Positions 12,770 through 62,566 of a stretch of 64,000 nt of DNA are shown here, piece after piece. Location: the sequence record SRR31156797_1198. One strand, written 5' to 3'. Numbering within the stretch: the first letter of the stretch is position 1; each line of letters begins with the position of its first letter. The position numbers were made by a program, and so were the translations under genes. Below the pieces are notes generated by a model. The model worked only from the letters and a program-made list of their open reading frames with translations. It was not told the DNA's origin and made no database searches.

Positions 12770-14707
12770 ATGGGAAAGTATCGTGATGATGCTGAGAAGC
12801 TGCTGGAATATGTTGGCGGCAAAGAAAATATCGCCGCAGTAACACATTGCGCGACACGGATGCGTTTTGTTTTGAACGATCAGACAAAAGCAAACGAAAA
12901 GGCAATTGAAGAAATTCCAAGTGTCAAAGGGATGTTTACGAATGCGGGACAATTCCAAGTCATTATCGGCAATGATGTCTCAACGTTTTACAATGATTTT
13001 ACCGATGTATCAGGAATAGAAGGTGTTTCTAAAGAACAAAGCAAAGCGATTGCAAAAAACAATCAAAATATCGTGCAACGAGCGATTGCTACGTTAGCTG
13101 AGATCTTTACCCCGTTATTACCAGCGATTATTGTCGGTGGTTTGATGCTAGGGCTGAGAAATTTCTTAGAAGGTGTACCGTTAGAAGCTCTAGGTGGACA
13201 AACGATTACGCAAGCTTCTACTTTTTGGAACGGTGTCAACGGCTTTTTATGGCTGCCCTGTGAAGCGATCTTTCACTTTCTACCAGTAGGGATTACCTGG
13301 AGTATTACACGTAAGATGGGAACCACGCAAATATTAGGGATTGTTTTAGGGATTACATTGGTTTCACCGCAATTATTAAATGCTTATTCAGTAAGTTCAA
13401 CTTCTGCTGCAGAAATTGCTCAAAATTATACGTGGGACTTCGGGTTCTTCACTATTGATAAAATTGGGTATCAAGCACAAGTGATCCCAGCAATGCTGGC
13501 AGGTTTCTTATTGGTTTATCTTGAAAGATTCTTCCGGAAATGGATTCCAGAAGCGGTTTCAATGATCTTCGTTCCATTGTTCTCATTGCTGCCAACTATT
13601 TTAGCAGCTCACATGGTATTAGGTCCAATCGGTTGGCAAATCGGATCAGGCATTTCTTGGGTCGTAAATGCTGGCTTGACCTCACCATTAAACTGGTTAT
13701 TTGGTTTCATTTTCGGTGGCTTGTATGCGCCTTTGGTTATTACCGGATTGCATCATACAACGCTAGCGATCGACTCTCAATTAGTAGCGGATTTTGGGAC
13801 AACAAACCTTTGGCCAATGATCATGCTGTCAAATATTGCGCAAGGTACGGCAGTATTGGCGATTTGGTTCCTTCACCGTGGCAATAAAAAAGAAGAACAA
13901 GTCTCTGTTCCAGCAACGATTTCTGCTTACATGGGGGTTACTGAACCAGCGATGTTCGGGATCAATTTGAAATATGTTTACCCATTTGTCGCAGCAATGG
14001 TAGGTTCTGCCTTCGGTGGAATGCTGATCACTGCAACGAATACCCGTGCATTAGGTATTGGTGTAGGGGGACTGCCTGGCTTCTTATCATTTAAAATTGA
14101 AAACTATCCAATGGTCTTCATCTCAATGGCGGTGACGATTGCGATCACTTTTGTTTGCACTATCGTCTTTAGAAAAGTTACCTTCTTAAATAAATTAGAA
14201 CCGCAATTGGCTGCTGATACAGCTGCAGCCCCAGAAGCAACACAAGTTTCAGAAGAAACCCTTTATGCCCCAGCTGATGGGAAAGTAGTTGCCATCACTG
14301 AAGTTTCTGATCCTGTCTTTTCTCAAAAAATGATGGGTGACGGCTTTGCTGTTCAGCCAACGAACGGAACGATTTATGCTCCTGTTGCAGGTACGATCTC
14401 TAGCATTTTTGAAACGAAACATGCAATCGGGATTTTAACGCCTGGTGGCGCGGAAGTTCTCGTCCACATGGGCTTGGATACTGTAGAACTAAAAGGTGCG
14501 CCATTTGAGGTTCTTGTTTCTGAAGGTGATACGGTCACACCAGAAACGAAGCTTGCAGTGATGGATCTAGATGCCGTTATCGCAGCTGGCAAACAGACTG
14601 ATGTTTTGACGGTCATCACGAATGCCGAAAAAGTGCGTCAGCTTTCATTGACGACTACAGGCACAGTGACAGCAAAAACAGCGGTTGGTTCAGCTGAATT
14701 AAACTAA
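12770..14707 (+). CDS. treB: Trehalose PTS EIIBCA
   Basis: EIIB HCATRMRF, EIIC ITGLHH and GVTEPAMFG, EIIA LVHMGLDTV. Confidence 0.9.
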   Translation: MGKYRDDAEKLLEYVGGKENIAAVTHCATRMRFVLNDQTKANEKAIEEIPSVKGMFTNAGQFQVIIGNDVSTFYNDFTDVSGIEGVSKEQSKAIAKNNQNIVQRAIATLAEIFTPLLPAIIVGGLMLGLRNFLEGVPLEALGGQTITQASTFWNGVNGFLWLPCEAIFHFLPVGITWSITRKMGTTQILGIVLGITLVSPQLLNAYSVSSTSAAEIAQNYTWDFGFFTIDKIGYQAQVIPAMLAGFLLVYLERFFRKWIPEAVSMIFVPLFSLLPTILAAHMVLGPIGWQIGSGISWVVNAGLTSPLNWLFGFIFGGLYAPLVITGLHHTTLAIDSQLVADFGTTNLWPMIMLSNIAQGTAVLAIWFLHRGNKKEEQVSVPATISAYMGVTEPAMFGINLKYVYPFVAAMVGSAFGGMLITATNTRALGIGVGGLPGFLSFKIENYPMVFISMAVTIAITFVCTIVFRKVTFLNKLEPQLAADTAAAPEATQVSEETLYAPADGKVVAITEVSDPVFSQKMMGDGFAVQPTNGTIYAPVAGTISSIFETKHAIGILTPGGAEVLVHMGLDTVELKGAPFEVLVSEGDTVTPETKLAVMDLDAVIAAGKQTDVLTVITNAEKVRQLSLTTTGTVTAKTAVGSAELN

Positions 14708-18618: not shown

Positions 18619-19233
18619 ATGAGAAAAGCAACGATTACGAAAAAATATTTGATCAACTGTTTAAAAAAATATCTGGTGGAATATCTTTATCGGCCAATCA
18701 CTGTCCGCGACATTGCTAAATATGCACGAACATCGACCCAACCAATTTATTTGAATTTTTCAAACATGCAAAATTATAAACAGGCAATGGTCGATGATGT
18801 CTTCCATGACATTCATGAAGCAAAAAAAGAGACGGTGATGACACTGGATCCTCTATACTGTTTTTGGCATGACTATTACGTGTTCGCCAGTCGCAATCGA
18901 GCCCTCTTTTTTGCATTATTTTTAAATGATATTGGTTGTGGTCCCTACATAAAAGAGTGTTCTTTTGCATATTTTCAAGAAGCAATCGCTGAATCAACTG
19001 TTTTTCAATGTGAGCAAGAAAACGATCTGAGGAAATACCATGAAGAAGCCTTGATTTTTTTTAGTGGGTTGGTATTGCTGTTTATTCGTGAAGGGTGTAC
19101 TGACGGCAACAAGGATTTTATAAAAGATACCATGGAGTATTGGGAACGAATGTTAAAGAAAGCAAAAGGCGTGACGCGAGACCAGGGTCGGCAAGGATTA
19201 TTAGAGGTCGGTACGTTTGCTGTAGAGGAATAG
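18619..19233 (+). CDS. TetR/AcrR-like transcriptional regulator
   Basis: ITVRDIAKYARTSTQPIYLNFSNM HTH. ATG follows AAGGAAGGGG. Confidence 0.75.
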   Translation: MRKATITKKYLINCLKKYLVEYLYRPITVRDIAKYARTSTQPIYLNFSNMQNYKQAMVDDVFHDIHEAKKETVMTLDPLYCFWHDYYVFASRNRALFFALFLNDIGCGPYIKECSFAYFQEAIAESTVFQCEQENDLRKYHEEALIFFSGLVLLFIREGCTDGNKDFIKDTMEYWERMLKKAKGVTRDQGRQGLLEVGTFAVEE

Positions 19234-19307
19234 GTACTTGAAATCAAGCATTAAAATAAATATCTGAATATTTTGACACCAAAAAACCGTTAGTGATTAA
19301 ACATTCT

Positions 19308-21011
19308 TCACTGACGGTTTTTTTGAGGAGGTAAGTCTTGCGGTATGAGTAGAACAATTGTGGTGTTTTCACCTTTTACTGATTGAATCGATAAGGAAGC
19401 TTGCGTGCCATAGTACAATGCTAGCCGTTGGCGTACATTGTTGATACCATAATGTTGATCAGAAGGTTCCTCCAGTTGTTTTAGCTGTTCAGGATCAATC
19501 CCGGGACCATTGTCTTGAATCTCAAACCGTAGCCATTGTCCTTCTTTGAGGCAGCGGATCGTCAATACCCCTCTGCGGTCATCTTCAATATGATCAAGCC
19601 CATGAAAGACGGCATTCTCGACAAACGGTTGCAAGAGCAGATGGATCATCGGATATTCACCGATATTTGAGTCAATTTCGAGGACTAAATCAAAGGAATG
19701 GTGATGCATTTTTTGCTGAATTTTAGCATAGGTGATCGTCAGATCGAGTTCTTTGCTGACGGATAGCCGGTTGGATCCTTGGTTTAGGCTGAGACGGTAG
19801 AATCGAGACAGCAGCTGAGCCATCTCACGGATCTCGTGATTGCCGTTTAGTGTGGCAGTATTGCTGATCAGTGCTAAGGAATTATAAAAGAAATGCGGAT
19901 TGATCTGGGCTTGCAGAGCCCGCAATTCGTATTCTTTTTGTTTCAATTCGGCTTCATATACTTCATTGATCAGCTCAGCGATTTTATCTAGCATTTTTTG
20001 AAAATTGGTGTATAACTGCCCGACTTCATCTTTTGAAGAATATGTGTGCTGGATTTTGAATTGATCCATTGATAAAGAGGCCATTTGCTGGGTCAAAGAG
20101 TTGATCGGCTGTACCACGGTTTTAGCCAACCACCAGCTGGATAAAACCAATATCATTAATACAAAACCAAAGATAATAAGTGCCGCACCAACTAGATACA
20201 GTAAACTGCTGAAAAATGACTGTGCGGTTTTAACAAAAACGATTTGCCAATGATTATCCAGCAGTACAGGTGCCTCTTCAATAACTGCGTTTCCAACCAG
20301 CCACTGTTTTTGAGTACGTTGCTGCTTCGTCAAATAATCAATGCGGTAAAGCGTCTGCCCGGTCTCTGACTGAATCGTCAAATCATAAGGCTCCTCAGTG
20401 ACTGCATCAAGATTCGTGAACAATGCTGCTCGATCGATGGTTAAAACGATGTAGTTTAAGGAATCTGCGGTATGGCCTTTTAAAAAAAGGTTGGTATAAA
20501 AAGAAAGTTCCTCCCGTTCTTTGTCAAAATACGTTCGAATCTCGGTCGAAGGTTTCTCTTTGAGAAAAGGCAGTGCTGTATCAGCCGTGATTTTTTTGAC
20601 GTATTGCCCATGATCATAAAGATCGATCGTGGTGTATAGCGTGATGCCTTTAATATCTGCTTGCGGAAAACGAACACTGTGAAACAAAGGCACGATCGTA
20701 TTTTGAAAGAGATTGTATTGATCAAAGTTTGAGAAGCGTTGACTAGAAAGCTCTTGCGTCAAGGCGGTATTGTTGGCTAAAAAGAGCAGGCTGTCCCGAT
20801 AGGTGTGGATCTTGCTTTCTAACTGATAGCTGATACTTTTGAGATTATCGGAGTAAGCACTTTTTTCCTGCTGTTGGATAAAGGCTCGGATGATAGATAC
20901 CCCGACAAAGGTCAAAACGATCAGAGGAACAATGCTTGAAAGAATTGAAATAAGGGCGATCTTTTTTTGAAAACGAAAATTTTTAACACAATCGTGGACT
21001 TTTCTTAACAA
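19308..21011 (-). CDS. YesM/LytS-type sensor histidine kinase
   Basis: Two TMs, HAMP domain, LQAQINPHFFYNSL H-box, QPFVENAVFHG, DNGPG. Confidence 0.92.
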   Translation of the reverse strand: MLRKVHDCVKNFRFQKKIALISILSSIVPLIVLTFVGVSIIRAFIQQQEKSAYSDNLKSISYQLESKIHTYRDSLLFLANNTALTQELSSQRFSNFDQYNLFQNTIVPLFHSVRFPQADIKGITLYTTIDLYDHGQYVKKITADTALPFLKEKPSTEIRTYFDKEREELSFYTNLFLKGHTADSLNYIVLTIDRAALFTNLDAVTEEPYDLTIQSETGQTLYRIDYLTKQQRTQKQWLVGNAVIEEAPVLLDNHWQIVFVKTAQSFFSSLLYLVGAALIIFGFVLMILVLSSWWLAKTVVQPINSLTQQMASLSMDQFKIQHTYSSKDEVGQLYTNFQKMLDKIAELINEVYEAELKQKEYELRALQAQINPHFFYNSLALISNTATLNGNHEIREMAQLLSRFYRLSLNQGSNRLSVSKELDLTITYAKIQQKMHHHSFDLVLEIDSNIGEYPMIHLLLQPFVENAVFHGLDHIEDDRRGVLTIRCLKEGQWLRFEIQDNGPGIDPEQLKQLEEPSDQHYGINNVRQRLALYYGTQASLSIQSVKGENTTIVLLIPQDLPPQKNRQ

Positions 21012-21666
21012 GAGGGACCTCTCTTTCTATACGCATCCGGCGTCATTCCGACAATTTCTCGGAACGTTTTGCAAAAATAGGAATAATGATTAAAGCCAAC
21101 TTGTTTGGAGATAGTTCGAATGCTGCAGTTCGAGTTCTTTAAACGCTTCTGAGCCTGTTTGATACGGTAAGACTTGATGTATTTGGTGATACCCATGCCT
21201 TCAGAAGTACTGAATAATTCGCTTAGGTAGTTAGGATTGATATTGACTTCCTTTGCTAACCGATCCAAGCTCAACTCTTGGTGAAAATGAGCGAATATAT
21301 AGGATTTTACTTGGCGCACATAGTCATTTGACTGGCTCCCGTTGATTTGAAGCAATGCATCATGGATATAATGGAAGAGGGCATCAAAAATATCCGCAAT
21401 TAGTTGCAGACTTGGCGCTTCCAGTATTTTTCCAATCTGATTAGCGCCACACTCCGCATCAAAAGTGATCGTGCACTGATCGAGGATTGTTTGATAAAAG
21501 GTCGCAAAATAAAACTTGGCATTGGTTGGTTCCTCACGTCCATTTGTTTCAAAGCAGTCGAAAACTGTTTTCACAAGCGCGTGGGCTTTTTTACTTTCGT
21601 ATTGATTCACATACGAAACGGTTTTTTCGAAAAGCGCTTTCTTGACGATGTAGTGATCTCCCGGAA
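21005..21666 (-). pseudogene. YesN-type AraC response regulator, 5'-truncated (receiver domain absent)
   Basis: C-terminal AraC double HTH (LSLDRLAKEVNINPNYLSELF...VGFNHYSYFCKTFREIVGMTP) coupled to the kinase gene. Upstream of ~21666 the frame is antisense flagellin sequence. Confidence 0.85.
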
Positions 21667-22623
21667 GCAGCTGGCTTAGCAATTTCTGAAAAAATGAAAG
21701 GCCAAATCGGCGGTTTGTCACAAGCAAAAAGCAATGCACAAGATGGTATCTCATTGATCCAAACAGCAGAAGGTGCATTAAATGAAACCCACAGCATCTT
21801 AGGCCGTATGCGTGACCTTGCGGTTCAAAGTTCAAACGGTACGTTAAGTGATGACGACCGCAGTGCGATCAACAAAGAATACACTGCATTGTCTGATGAA
21901 ATCGACCGTATCAGCAATACCACTGAATTCAATACAAAAAGCTTGTTAACTGGTGAAGGCGATGATGCGAAATCATTCACTTTCCAAATCGGTGCCAACG
22001 CAAACCAAACAATGAGCGTTTCAATCAACAACATGAGCTCATCTGCCTTGAAAGTAAAAGGCTTAGATTTAACACAAGCCATTGACACAAGCGATGCCAA
22101 AGCTGTTGCTGCAGCAAAAGATAAAGCAGTAGCGACTGCCTTCAAAGCAGATGCTACAACAAAATATGCAGCGGACGGCACAGTTGATGCGGCAGCTGGT
22201 AAAACAGTTGCTGAATTACAAACAGCCATCGATACAGCTGCGGATGATACAGCAAAAGCAACAGCTCAAAAAACATACGATGATGCTTTAGCAACATTTA
22301 CCGCTTCTGATGAAGGCAAAGCAGCAGCGGCAACTGTCAGCGTTGAAAACAACCCAATCACGAAAATCGATGAAGCGATCAAAGCAGTTTCTGCACAACG
22401 TGCGGATCTTGGTGCGGCGCAAAACCGTCTAGAACACACAATCAACAACTTAGGTACAACACAAGAAAACCTATCTGAAGCTAACTCACGTATCCGTGAC
22501 GTTGATATGGCCCAAGAAATGATGAGCTTTACGAAGAGCAACATCCTTTCTCAAGCAGCAACTTCAATGTTGGCACAAGCAAACTCAATGCCTAACAGCG
22601 TATTGAGCTTGTTACAAGGATAA
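21667..22623 (+). pseudogene. fliC: Flagellin, 5'-truncated (about 40 N-terminal codons, RBS and promoter missing)
   Basis: The frame reads AAGLAISEK before Met 21694, i.e. the internal DDAAGLAISEKM motif. In-frame TGA at 21643. C-terminus intact (RADLGAAQNRLE...SRIRDVDMA...LSLLQG). Confidence 0.92.
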
Positions 22624-22645
22624 TTTTTGATCAAGTGAACCACTG

Positions 22646-22686
22646 ACACAAGGACTGCCTAGGGGAAGCGCAGTTCTTGTGTTTTA
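22646..22686 (+). terminator. Hairpin/terminator after flagellin
   Basis: ACACAAGGACTGC / GCAGTTCTTGTGT plus T-run. Confidence 0.7.
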
Positions 22687-22725
22687 CATAGCAGCACAAA
22701 AACGCTTAGAAATGAGGAAGCTCTG

Positions 22726-23139
22726 ATGGATATTCAGCCAATGTCAGGAATATACCCGATCGAAGCCGTTGCGTCGGTCGCTAAAGCACGTCCGATCGAA
22801 TCCCTAGATCAAGAGACCGCCATCCTTCAGCCGCAACACCAAGAGGGGAAACTGGCGGAGAAAAAGGAACGGACAGTGGTCACTGAACCGCCGATCCACT
22901 ATTTTTCAGTAGCCGATCAGCACAAGATCGCAGCCTCCGTGGAGGAAGTGAATCAGCGACTACTTGGCAAAGATATGAAATTGGCTTATGAGGTACATGA
23001 GCGCACAGGGCGTACGATGGTGCGTTTAGTGGATATGCAGACCAACGAAGTGATCAAAGAGATCCCACCAGCCAACATGCTAGATGTGATTGGAAAAATA
23101 TGGGATGACATGGGCATTGCGGTCGATCGAAAGGGATGA
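22726..23139 (+). CDS. flaG: Flagellar protein FlaG
   Basis: VHERTGR.MVRLVD..T.EVIKEIPP motif. Lies between flagellin and fliD. Confidence 0.9.
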   Translation: MDIQPMSGIYPIEAVASVAKARPIESLDQETAILQPQHQEGKLAEKKERTVVTEPPIHYFSVADQHKIAASVEEVNQRLLGKDMKLAYEVHERTGRTMVRLVDMQTNEVIKEIPPANMLDVIGKIWDDMGIAVDRKG

Positions 23140-23143
23140 AACT

Positions 23144-24565
23144 ATGGCAAGTGTAACCAGCAGTTCAGGAATCAGTACAACGCTAGGGAGTTATTCTGGC
23201 GTGACTTCAGAAGATATTGAAAAATTATTGGCGGCAGATGCGATCAATAAGACCCGCGCTGAGAATAAAATCACGTCGCTTAAAGCACAAAAAACGGCAT
23301 GGAGTGATATCAGCACTCGCTTGACTAACTTTTTGTCAAAAGTCGATGCGTTACAAAAAGATGATGCTTATCAAACAAAAAAAGCGACGACCACCAATAG
23401 TAGTATCGCTTCAATTGCAGGAACAACGGAAGCCCCAGAAGGCACCTATGATCTAAAAGTCAACCAACTAGCAACCGCCACGAAGGTGACGGGGAGTCAA
23501 GTAGCTCAAAGCAGCAAAACGGCCCTAAATGTCAGTGGTCAGCTCTCATTGACCAGTTCGGAAGTCGATGAAGATGGCAAACCGATCACCGCTTCGATCG
23601 AGATCACGGCCGAAGATAGCTTAAAAGATGTGGCAGCTAAGATCAATGGCCAAAGCAAGACGACCTTCGTTGCAGCGAGCATCGTGGATAACCGTTTGAT
23701 TTTAACGAATACGAAAATGGGCGACAAAAACTTCTTGATCGACGGCAATGCCGCCGAAGGATTAGGGATCGGTTCAACTGCGGCTACGACGCAAGGCCAA
23801 CCGGCTATTTTTGAACTAGACGGCATGGAGATCACCCGCGACAGCAATAGTGTGACGGATGTTATCGATGGTGTCACGCTGACGTTAGCGAAAAAAAGCG
23901 AGGAGCATGTGACGCTTTCTTTAGCTAATGATACTTCGAAAGTCGTTGATGCAGTACAAGGATTAGTGGATCAATACAATAGCTTGATGAGTTTTATCGG
24001 CGATAATTTGACCGTGGGAGATCCTAGTAGTGAAAACAACAAGACGGGGACCTTGGTGGGAGACAGTGCGTTGACCCGTCTACAGACTCAATTGCGAAAT
24101 TTGATCACCATTCCAGCCGTCAGCGGCTCAAAGCTGACCGCTAATAAGCTAGGCATCTCCACCGTCGATAATGATGGTACATTGGGACTGGATACGACAA
24201 AGTTAAAAGAAGCCCTAGCGGAAGATCCCGCTGCTGTGAAGTCCTTCTTTTATGCAAGTACGAAAACCAAAGAAGCCGATGGCACTGCGAGTACGAAAGA
24301 GACCGGCTATACATTAGCGCTAAAAGAATTAGCCAACAGCTATGTCGTCAATACTTCAGCCAATAAAGGGATCATTGCCACCAAATCTGCGACCTATGAC
24401 AGTACCATCAAGGATTTGAACAAGCAGATCACACGGTTTGATGCTATTTTAGCAATGAAAAAAGAGCGTTACATCACAATGTTTACCAAATTAGACTCCG
24501 TGATGATGGAGGCTGAAAATCAGCTGAGTTACCTAAGCAATCAGTTTGCCAATACGTCAAACTAG
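23144..24565 (+). CDS. fliD: Flagellar filament cap protein
   Basis: G.Y...V.QLATA, SNSVTDVIDGVTLTL and C-terminal ERY..MFTKLD motifs. Confidence 0.93.
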   Translation: MASVTSSSGISTTLGSYSGVTSEDIEKLLAADAINKTRAENKITSLKAQKTAWSDISTRLTNFLSKVDALQKDDAYQTKKATTTNSSIASIAGTTEAPEGTYDLKVNQLATATKVTGSQVAQSSKTALNVSGQLSLTSSEVDEDGKPITASIEITAEDSLKDVAAKINGQSKTTFVAASIVDNRLILTNTKMGDKNFLIDGNAAEGLGIGSTAATTQGQPAIFELDGMEITRDSNSVTDVIDGVTLTLAKKSEEHVTLSLANDTSKVVDAVQGLVDQYNSLMSFIGDNLTVGDPSSENNKTGTLVGDSALTRLQTQLRNLITIPAVSGSKLTANKLGISTVDNDGTLGLDTTKLKEALAEDPAAVKSFFYASTKTKEADGTASTKETGYTLALKELANSYVVNTSANKGIIATKSATYDSTIKDLNKQITRFDAILAMKKERYITMFTKLDSVMMEAENQLSYLSNQFANTSN

Positions 24566-24639
24566 GCAGGATAGCCGATTAAAGCAGTCATTTTTTCATT
24601 TGCATAAGAAACCCTCGTCAACAAGAAAGGAAACAACCT

Positions 24640-24969
24640 ATGGAGCCACACGTATCATTAGATGAACGTTTGAATCAGATTTTAACTGGGTTTGCAAAAT
24701 GGCGCGGCGACAGCGAAGAAGCCGGTCGTTTGATGGCAGCCAATGCAGCGGTCATAGCAGCCATGCAAGCAGAAGAACAGAGCCATAGTCCACAAACCAG
24801 TGCATTGGCGCAACAAGTGATCCAAGCGTATCAAGCGTTCCTAGACCAGGTCAAAGCCCAGCAGCAAGAGATCAAACAAGAATTGGGGCGTTTGAACCGC
24901 AAAAACAATCTTGTCAAAACGTATTTGCAGCAAGAAGACAGTGCCGCCTTCGTCGAATTTGATTTATAG
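24640..24969 (+). CDS. Small helical protein, probable FliT-like chaperone
   Basis: Helical 109-aa protein between fliD and fliS with a Y...F.E C-terminus and a good RBS. Confidence 0.5.
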   Translation: MEPHVSLDERLNQILTGFAKWRGDSEEAGRLMAANAAVIAAMQAEEQSHSPQTSALAQQVIQAYQAFLDQVKAQQQEIKQELGRLNRKNNLVKTYLQQEDSAAFVEFDL

Positions 24970-24982
24970 TGAGGAAAAAAAG

Positions 24983-25351
24983 ATGAATTATCAAAAAATG
25001 CAAAACAACTATCTGCAGAACCAAGTAATGAGTGCCTCCCCCAACAAACTGATTGAAATGCTGTTGCAAGCAGCCATCAAAAACATCAAATTAGCAGTGA
25101 TCGCATTGGAAAAAGAAGAGTTGAGCCAAGCCCATCAGCAATTTGTCAAGGCGCAGAATATTTTATTGGAATTACGGGTCTCTTTAGACCGTGAGCAAGG
25201 CGGCGCTATTGCTGAAGATCTCGATCAGCTTTATGGCTATATGTACGATCAGCTGGTCAGTGCCAATGTCCAAAAAGAGGCAGCCCCTGCAGAAACGGTC
25301 GTCCCACTTTTAAGCGAACTACTGGAAAGCTGGCAAACGATCACCCAATAA
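24983..25351 (+). CDS. fliS: Flagellin export chaperone
   Basis: Y..NQVMSASP.KLI.ML, KAQNILLEL..SLD, LDQLYGYM motifs. Confidence 0.93.
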   Translation: MNYQKMQNNYLQNQVMSASPNKLIEMLLQAAIKNIKLAVIALEKEELSQAHQQFVKAQNILLELRVSLDREQGGAIAEDLDQLYGYMYDQLVSANVQKEAAPAETVVPLLSELLESWQTITQ

Positions 25352-25516
25352 ATTTGAGAAAAAGCAAAGAAACGACCACCTAAAACCTAGAAAAGTTTAG
25401 TAATTGGTTAAATTTTTACCATGTATCCCTTTTCACTAAGCTTTCTTTTTCCCCTCCTCGTCCCTATCTGGTACTCTTTTTATGAGCGTACCGAAAAGGT
25501 GCAAGGAGGTTTTTTT

Positions 25517-27268
25517 TTGAAACAAAAAATAGTACAAAAGCCGCTTTTCTGGCAAGTGGTGATTCTGATTGCAATGAGTGGTGTTTTTTTATTACCGCAG
25601 ATCTTAGGCCAAGGCATGATTTTGGGCTCTGATGTGGTCTTTCACTTCAATCGTTTTTATGAGACCAGCCAGCAGATCAAAGAGGGCAATTTTCAATATT
25701 TTCTTTCTATCTACGGGTTTCAGCAATCTGCTCGTATCGTCAATGCATTATACGGTCCCTTTTTTGCCTATTTCCAAGGTCTGCTGGTCTTGCTGAGTCC
25801 TTCGTGGTTTTCCTACCAACTGCTCGCCAATGGGCTGCTCTATCTGCTAGCAGGGTTTTCGATGTTTGGCTTATTAAAGAAACTACGAGTCAATGGCTGG
25901 CTGTCAGTGGGGATGAGCATCCTGTTTATGGCGACCTATTCTGTCCAGTATTGGATTGAGCGGCAGGGCTTTTCTGCTTGGGGAGCAGCCGTGTTACCGC
26001 TGTGTCTGATTCCACTGATCGCACTAGGGGAACATAAACGGTTGCGGCCTTTTGCGGTAGGGGTTTCCGTGGCGGTCTTATTTCAAATCCATGTGTTTTC
26101 AAGCATCTTGTTAGTGCTCTTATATGTGCCCTTTTTCTTACGCGCCTTTTTTGTTGGAACTTCCGGCGAAGAAAAACGACAATTGGTGCTGCGCTTAGCA
26201 GGAGCGATCGGGATTTTCTTGCTGCTGACCGCCAATATTTGGTTAGGGATGTTGGATCTCTATACGAGTAACACGTTGATCGCGCCTTTTGTGAATCGCA
26301 ACATGCAGAACAATACCATTACTGGAACCAGCAGCTATTGGTGGACGACTCCGTACCTGCTGCCAATCTTATGTGCCTTGTTCTTTTGCGGTGCGATTCG
26401 TGTATGGCCTCGTCTATCCGGCGGCTTCAAATTAATGACAGCAGCTGCAGCGGTCTTTTTCGTTTTATCATCGAACGCTATTCCTTGGCAATGGCTAGGC
26501 AGTCTGGACAATGGTGTGATCAATTTACTACAATTCCCTTTTCGGTTCTTTGTTCCTGCCACGATTTTGATCTTAGTCGGTTTGTGCCTGCTGGTTCCTT
26601 ATTATCGGGGCAAGCCATTGGCAAATCCGCGTTGGTTCGTCCTCGTTTTAGTTTTGAGTGTTGGTCAAATCCTGATCCAAAACACGGTCAAAATGCAGGA
26701 CTGGCACTCCGATGAAGCGGCAGTTTCACTGCGAAACCACACCTATCTCTCGGCGGAATCTGAAGCGCAATTGAAGGAAGCCTATTTTAGTAAAGACAAG
26801 TCCTTAGCATTAGCGCTGTATCAACGTTCTACCCCAGATTATCTGCCCCTCTATCAAGAGACCAAGAAGAACAAGTACAATTTGTACGGGGAAGAAATCA
26901 TTGAAAAAAATGATACCGTGGCAAAAACCGTAGAAAACGGGAAACTTACTTTACGTTGGCAAGGTGATCAAGAGGCGTGGAAGGCGTTACCGATCATCAA
27001 TTACCGCTATACTGAATTGACCCTCAATCAGCAGCCACTAACTGAGAAAGATGTCTCTTTGAGTGCCATTGGTGCCGTTTCTGTCCAACAGCAAGCAGGG
27101 GAGAATGTCTTAGTCGTTGACTATGACGCACCTTGGTTTTTCGACGGAGCTTTATGGCTGACGATCATTTCTTGGATCGCTTTACTCATCGGCTTTATCA
27201 GCTGGAAAACAAGACAGCTGTATCGTCGTCGTAAGGTCGTACAAGCTTTATTGAAAGAATCTGAATAA
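25517..27268 (+). CDS. Polytopic membrane protein, YfhO/GT-C-like
   Basis: GSD..FH.NRF, YGP, LQFPFRF, TPDYLP motifs and many TM helices. TTG start after AGGAGG. Confidence 0.6.
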   Translation: MKQKIVQKPLFWQVVILIAMSGVFLLPQILGQGMILGSDVVFHFNRFYETSQQIKEGNFQYFLSIYGFQQSARIVNALYGPFFAYFQGLLVLLSPSWFSYQLLANGLLYLLAGFSMFGLLKKLRVNGWLSVGMSILFMATYSVQYWIERQGFSAWGAAVLPLCLIPLIALGEHKRLRPFAVGVSVAVLFQIHVFSSILLVLLYVPFFLRAFFVGTSGEEKRQLVLRLAGAIGIFLLLTANIWLGMLDLYTSNTLIAPFVNRNMQNNTITGTSSYWWTTPYLLPILCALFFCGAIRVWPRLSGGFKLMTAAAAVFFVLSSNAIPWQWLGSLDNGVINLLQFPFRFFVPATILILVGLCLLVPYYRGKPLANPRWFVLVLVLSVGQILIQNTVKMQDWHSDEAAVSLRNHTYLSAESEAQLKEAYFSKDKSLALALYQRSTPDYLPLYQETKKNKYNLYGEEIIEKNDTVAKTVENGKLTLRWQGDQEAWKALPIINYRYTELTLNQQPLTEKDVSLSAIGAVSVQQQAGENVLVVDYDAPWFFDGALWLTIISWIALLIGFISWKTRQLYRRRKVVQALLKESE

Positions 27269-62458: not shown

Positions 62459-62566
62459 CAAGTGATAAAAAAGCAGCTGCCTCCGACGAGACAACCGCTT
62501 TAGACTGCAGACAAACCTTAGACAAAAATGAGGTTTGTTTTTTTCGTTGCAAAATATTAGTGACTA

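Follow-up and report, generated by a model that had tools for sequence, protein, structure and literature searches.

A probable 88-kb microhomology-mediated deletion joins remnants of a regulator gene and a flagellin gene in a strain of the E. casseliflavus group

The stretch of DNA analysed here (sequence record SRR31156797_1198, 64,000 nt, referred to as the window) comes from a strain of the E. casseliflavus group which, by comparison with close relatives, very probably underwent a single deletion of 88,040 bp by microhomology-mediated recombination. One end of the deletion would lie inside the gene for a YesN-like AraC-type response regulator and the other in the flagellin gene, 126 nt from its start. 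The interval would have taken with it all flagellar genes for basal body, hook, export, motor and sigma factor, all chemotaxis genes and some 52 kb of genes for sugar uptake, respiration and gluconeogenesis. The junction was seen in one assembly, and we infer that the event happened in the living cell and is no product of assembly.

At the junction the 3' 222 codons of the regulator gene, on the minus strand, directly abut codons 43-360 of the flagellin gene, on the plus strand, at window 21667-21675. The features around it are as follows, where G001 denotes the nearest genome compared (75% of the window's sampled words in common, 99% identity).

19308 to 21011, minus strand: YesM-like sensor histidine kinase gene with HAMP, His_kinase and HATPase_c domains; the ORF is intact.
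21005 to 21675, minus strand: remnant of an AraC-type response-regulator gene, the C-terminal 222 codons plus stop, equivalent to residues 280-501 of the 501 in the G001 protein.
21667 to 21675, no strand assigned: probable deletion junction, a single copy of the 9-mer GCAGCTGGC; the same 9-mer bounds the 88,040-bp interval in G001.
21667 to 22623, plus strand: flagellin gene remnant, codons 43-360 of 360 plus stop, as placed by Pfam and by alignment with G001.

The homologies to the two genes overlap by the nine bases of 21667-21675 and there is no spacer between the remnants. No sigma-70-like promoter site was found in 20900-22800, where shuffled sequences gave an expectation of 3.1; the scan was one for sigma-70-like sites, and for a sigma-D-type promoter the only sigma-factor gene of the cluster would itself be gone. 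Inverted repeats in 21200-22150 numbered 0. A first-pass annotation of this DNA had reported neither spacer, promoter nor obvious repeat at the fusion. The first two of these stand, but the third does not, as there is a direct microhomology of 9 bp. In the ORF list the longest minus-strand ORF across the junction runs from 21005 to 21835 (276 aa, TTG start) and the longest on the plus strand from 21694 to 22623 (309 aa). Both are fusion artefacts or pseudogenes.

On the flagellin side the first-pass annotation had read a TGA at 21643, the residues RCSDLPE and then flagellin. This frame was confirmed, with TGA at 21643-21645 followed by RCSDLPE and then by AAGLAISEKMKGQ, from which it is open to the stop at 22621-22623. 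The in-frame TGA lies 8 codons ahead of the flagellin homology, which has no start codon of its own. The homology had also been said to begin mid-motif at about 21667 with about 40 residues lacking ahead of the motif. Flagellin_N (PF00669) is indeed matched only from profile position 40 (positions 40-137 of 139), which leaves the N-terminal helical region incomplete, and nothing in the window copy corresponds to residues 1-42 of the G001 orthologue. Flagellin_C (PF00700) is complete (positions 1-86 of 86, 111 bits). Compared with the 360-aa G001 flagellin, the window protein matches from residue 43, agreeing with it at 318 of 319 aligned positions. Besides the first 42 codons, which encode the N-terminal helical segment, the remnant lacks a ribosome-binding site and a promoter; the native upstream region of the G001 gene falls inside the deleted interval. 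A complete flagellin N-terminal helical region is required for export and polymerisation. The remnant is 100% identical to the flagellins of E. casseliflavus NBRC 100478 and E. innesii GAL7, and the window is therefore assigned to the E. casseliflavus group.

The variable region of the flagellin gene contains a 13-nt imperfect tandem duplication at 22069-22094 (within window 22069-22100). A contig of the public run X1 is shorter by 3 and 6 bases at 22096 and 22100 in this region; these differences are in-frame strain-to-strain length variation in the central region of flagellin.

On the regulator side, the C-terminal ~220 codons of an AraC regulator given by the first-pass annotation correspond to the 222 codons listed above. 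In Pfam searches the minus frame 21005-21700 gave HTH_18 and HTH_AraC only, without Response_reg; the HTH_18 match is complete (positions 1-80 of 80). The G001 orthologue is intact at 501 aa, with Response_reg at 5-115 and HTH_18 at 418-497. The expectation that YesN-type regulators start with a receiver domain thus holds for the orthologue, and the window copy has lost that domain along with its start codon and promoter. The sensor kinase ORF follows the truncated gene downstream, with a 7-nt overlap. Judging from the gene order in G001, its promoter has presumably been lost as well. From the gene content, the YesM/YesN-like system would be inactive, and the transporter operon that is its probable target would have been deleted with the interval.

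The flanks were aligned with G001, a comparison the first-pass annotation had proposed, and this sized the gap. Window 19000-21675 corresponds to positions 81405-84081 of G001 contig C45, and window 21664-24600 to positions 172110-175046 of the same contig, both on the plus strand and with 99% identity. Both flanks are therefore on one contig in one orientation, separated by 88,040 bp. Beyond these two matches the window continues to be collinear with the contig (C45 62352-214445), over 21.6 kb on one side of the junction and 42 kb on the other. The 9-mer GCAGCTGGC occurs in G001 at 84073-84081, inside the regulator gene, and again at 172113-172121, in flagellin codons 43-45. Similarity around the two copies extends to 11 of 12 bases, one mismatch included. 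When the left and right flanks of G001 were joined via one copy of the 9-mer, the product equalled the window over 1001 nt with 2 mismatches. When random junctions were simulated from the two actual gene sequences, only 8 of 200,000 had microhomology of at least 9 bp, and the repeat is therefore taken as part of the mechanism and not as a coincidence.

A third direct copy of the 9-mer is present inside the G001 interval at C45 152955, among the flagellar export genes. It was not used here.

Other relatives have the arrangement of G001. The 41 relatives searched comprised one genome per species, and 12 of them had any match. A check for the junction arrangement in relatives had been suggested in the first pass, and a match running across the junction was found in none of the 41; G001, G008 and G003 hold the two halves apart. 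Its absence from this set is as expected, since the event is strain-level and each species is represented by one genome. The halves lie on one contig and strand in all three of these genomes, and their coordinates place them about 88.0 kb apart in G001, about 86.7 kb in G008 and about 61.0 kb in G003. In X1, too, a single contig of 307,007 bases has the two pieces on the same strand, at a distance of about 87.3 kb. Contigs of the public runs X1, X3 and X15 cease to match the window at 21675 for the left piece and at 21667 for the right piece, and the loose ends of the X3 and X15 contigs carry on with the G001 letters, as intact genes.

In G003 the regulator and flagellin genes are only about 61 kb apart (C2 162519-224481), compared with about 87-88 kb in G001, G008 and X1. 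The interval itself is therefore variable among close species.

The main rival to a deletion is an artefact of assembly or library preparation, in which the join arose during assembly or from template switching in vitro at the 9-mer while the strain still has the 88 kb in place. Template switching during amplification prefers short microhomologies, and the junction was not found in independent data, namely the run index, the X-run contigs and the metagenome contigs. When a 100-base junction query was represented by 5 sampled words, 4 of the 5 were present in 18 runs and 2 of the 5 in one, and all 5 in none, among the 22 runs listed. Run X22 yielded 4 raw reads with 90-95% likeness, all on the flagellin side and from another organism, and the junction 30-mer had 0 exact matches in metagenome_contigs. 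Against this, the words and overlaps on which assemblers base joins are much longer than nine bases, so that a false join by the assembler is unlikely, and a rare chimeric molecule would not prevail in the consensus when an isolate is assembled. In addition, collinearity of the flanks with G001 is clean over 21.6 kb and 42 kb. The interval sequence is absent from the rest of the 64-kb window: of 4 blastn matches, 2 are the flanks and 2 are weak paralogous matches at about 76%. An artefact is, on this evidence, decidedly improbable.

It is less probable still, and by a clear step, that the interval was excised at the microhomology and persists elsewhere in the genome, either as a circle or inserted at another site. 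Each break disrupts the gene in which it falls, Pfam finds no recombinase, transposase or replication genes in the interval, and no part of it is in the window. Even after such a relocation the flagellin and regulator genes would remain split.

An inversion end, possibly belonging to a motility switch, had been offered as an alternative in the first-pass annotation; the inversion would be large and the switch reversible. The sole support for this is the head-to-head look of the two truncated genes, and that look arises because the regulator and flagellin genes are divergent in the reference too. The end of an inversion would put the 5' part of the flagellin gene, reverse-complemented, against the regulator, but what is observed is the 3' part in the reference orientation. 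The 9-mer is a direct repeat, with its reverse complement absent from C45 82001-174000, and the junction has no inverted repeats. As both flanks keep the reference orientation (plus to plus) and it is the 3' part of flagellin that is joined, the topology contradicts an inversion, which can be set aside with near certainty. An equally negligible chance attaches to the window being the ancestral state into which relatives gained an 88-kb insertion: no support for this was found, and an insertion could not have supplied relatives with the halves that two unrelated genes lack here. Both genes are truncated in the window but whole in G001; both halves and the interval are on one contig in G001, G008, G003 and X1, and X3 and X15 continue past the junction as intact genes.

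A deletion remains the preferred reading, and the interval it would have removed was analysed in G001. C45 82001-174000 contains 87 non-overlapping ORFs of at least 80 aa, all of which were scanned against Pfam. The 1st is the 501-aa regulator, the 86th the 360-aa flagellin and the 87th flaG, and the 84 ORFs between regulator and flagellin are wholly missing from the window.

Nearly half of these (41 of 84) form a motility and chemotaxis block of about 36 kb at C45 135931-171849. It has two MCP genes, one at its start and one inside it, together with motB and motA; the structural and export genes flgB, flgC, fliE, fliF, fliG, fliI, fliJ, fliK, flgD and flgE, with a Pfam-unassigned ORF at the fliH position; fliL, fliO, fliP, fliQ, fliR, flhB and flhA, with a sigma factor, two rod genes and an ABC ATPase; cheW, cheD, cheB, cheR, cheA, cheC/X, cheY and a second cheW; and fliM, fliN/Y, flgN, flgK and flgL. 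No Pfam family was assigned to 3 ORFs of the block. The genes had been claimed to lie in a single large motility cluster, and in G001 the flagellar and chemotaxis genes are contiguous, ending in flgK-flgL-flagellin-flaG-fliD-fliS.

The other 43 ORFs are non-motility genes occupying about 52 kb at C45 85107-135647 (loci L004-L006). Those concerned with sugars include an ABC transporter with a GH13 enzyme, a LacI regulator, PTS components, an FGGY kinase and glycosidases, and there are several sugar-uptake operons and a split transketolase. Others are cydA and cydB with two ABC genes, a polyprenyl synthetase, a UbiA-type prenyltransferase, a Pyr_redox_2 dehydrogenase, ApbE, a large flavoprotein reductase and an autolysin. 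A class-3 FBPase and PPDK with its regulator were also found. Within G001, flhA, cydA and the pair of flagellin and flgL occur only inside the interval.

The first-pass annotation had proposed a deletion of both 5' ends together with upstream motility genes. The comparison with G001 agrees with this, in that the flanks are collinear across 88,040 bp and the whole flagellar and chemotaxis block is inside. As to extent, the motility genes are gone as had been proposed, and the loss of about 52 kb of non-motility genes goes beyond that proposal. Pfam detected no integrase, resolvase or transposase families among the 87 ORFs. Excision of an IS element, prophage or island was considered and rejected, as there are no recombinase families in these ORFs and no inverted repeats at the junction.

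The 9-base word, directly repeated at both sites with a single copy left after joining, points to a RecA-independent route of illegitimate recombination: either a break followed by microhomology-mediated end joining or by annealing, or else slippage of the template. The likeliest sequence of events would be a double-strand break, resection and annealing at the microhomology. Replication-fork slippage is the less probable route, since 88 kb is large for such short repeats. The product would be a promoterless, N-terminally truncated flagellin gene, orphan flaG, fliD and fliS genes and a decapitated two-component system.

The same traits mark spontaneous microhomology-mediated deletions in bacteria, in which a short direct repeat bounds the segment in the undeleted reference and survives as one copy where the flanks meet, and the breaks fall inside unrelated genes without a mobile element or site-specific recombinase. 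They differ from the present case in that the route is read here from the scar alone and in that 88 kb is large for slippage at such repeats. Alternative end-joining in E. coli is one example of RecA-independent illegitimate chromosomal deletion. A strain-level microhomology-mediated deletion is a known kind of event and is unsurprising to a specialist.

Downstream of the flagellin remnant the last genes of the cluster are retained.

22726 to 23139, plus strand: flaG, Pfam FlaG, no internal stops, 4 amino acid differences from G001; intact.
23090 to 24565, plus strand: fliD (filament cap), Pfam FliD_N, FliD_C and Flagellin_IN, 1 amino acid difference from G001; intact.
24640 to 24969, plus strand: 109-aa ORF between fliD and fliS, identical to G001; no Pfam family above cut-off.
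24911 to 25351, plus strand: fliS (flagellin chaperone), Pfam FliS, identical to G001; intact.

None of these four ORFs has an internal stop, and the 4325 nt downstream of the junction differ from G001 by 31 substitutions and 0 indels. There is no visible decay of the retained genes since the deletion. The presence of flaG, fliD and fliS is not to be taken as a sign of motility in this strain.

Directly 3' of fliS is an ORF of 615 aa (window 25421-27268, plus strand) with many hydrophobic stretches and no Pfam family at E<=0.001. It has been kept after the deletion.

Judged by its gene content, the strain should be non-flagellated and non-motile, with no flagellum, no chemotaxis and no export of flagellin. 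If it is otherwise like G001, it would also have lost cytochrome bd respiration, FBPase and PPDK, and it may be unable to respire, as cydA is single-copy in G001 and lies in the missing interval. With cydA, of which G001 has no second copy, gone along with FBPase and PPDK, the metabolism of the strain is predicted to differ more widely. Losing such useful-looking genes is somewhat unusual for a fit natural isolate and counts to some degree against the deletion, although none of the three is known to be essential in enterococci.

Whether such a deletion was adaptive and naturally selected, and not a laboratory or assembly accident, was also considered, and we regard this as unlikely. If the deletion were adaptive, flagellin, chemotaxis, cytochrome bd respiration and gluconeogenesis would have been shed in one event, in a shift towards a host-restricted, fermentative and immune-quiet lifestyle. 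It would then account at the molecular level for the 'non-motile E. casseliflavus' isolates that cause confusion in clinical identification. Should the same pair of 9-mers be used repeatedly, the locus would be a recurrent deletion hotspot.

Motility serves as a key trait by which E. casseliflavus and E. gallinarum are separated from the other enterococci, and misidentification of non-motile isolates is known. Motility is said to mark 'most strains', with phenotype variation causing confusion, and conserved flagellar and chemotaxis clusters are described in E. casseliflavus and E. gallinarum (Palmer et al. 2012, PMC3374389). The E. casseliflavus FliC protein is given as 357-361 aa, and flagellin as a TLR5 ligand in these enterococci (Laute-Caly et al. 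2019, PMC6349862). G001 resembles the cluster described in these two papers, its genes being contiguous and its flagellin 360 aa long, whereas the window keeps the last part only: the 3' part of flagellin, flaG, fliD, the 109-aa ORF and fliS. Nonpigmented and nonmotile strains may occur (PMC6223339), and a 1998 paper on nonmotile E. gallinarum isolates is cited in PMC13556245. The phenotype predicted here is the same as that of these recorded strains, but the cause is defined at base resolution, and none is given in those passages. No genetic cause of non-motile E. casseliflavus was found in the article texts searched. The locus would supply a base-exact genetic cause for one predicted non-motile strain, which is useful for annotation and strain typing, and the junction is a target for PCR or k-mer screening.

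Flagellar-locus loss is exemplified by Shigella, Yersinia pestis and Burkholderia mallei. In experimental evolution of Campylobacter jejuni, motility is reported to have been lost together with genome reduction (PMC7677240). The present deletion is like such losses in host adaptation and laboratory evolution in being a predicted one-step loss of motility through genome reduction. Many cases elsewhere are due to point mutations, IS elements or gradual decay, whereas here the deletion is clean and the remaining genes are undecayed.

Only one other break in collinearity with G001 was observed. It lies at window 14219-14229, opposite C45 76577-76624, where G001 is longer by a few tens of bases. 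Tandem Repeats Finder detected no tandem repeat in window 13900-14600, and a tandem-repeat origin for this indel was therefore rejected. At the far end of the window, about 45 nt within 62496-62544 match 7 places in G001 at 88-91%, 5 of which are no more than about 130 nt from the first listed base of a contig, or at about 1,500. The segment contains a hairpin followed by a T-run, and it looks like a dispersed intergenic repeat or a terminator element.
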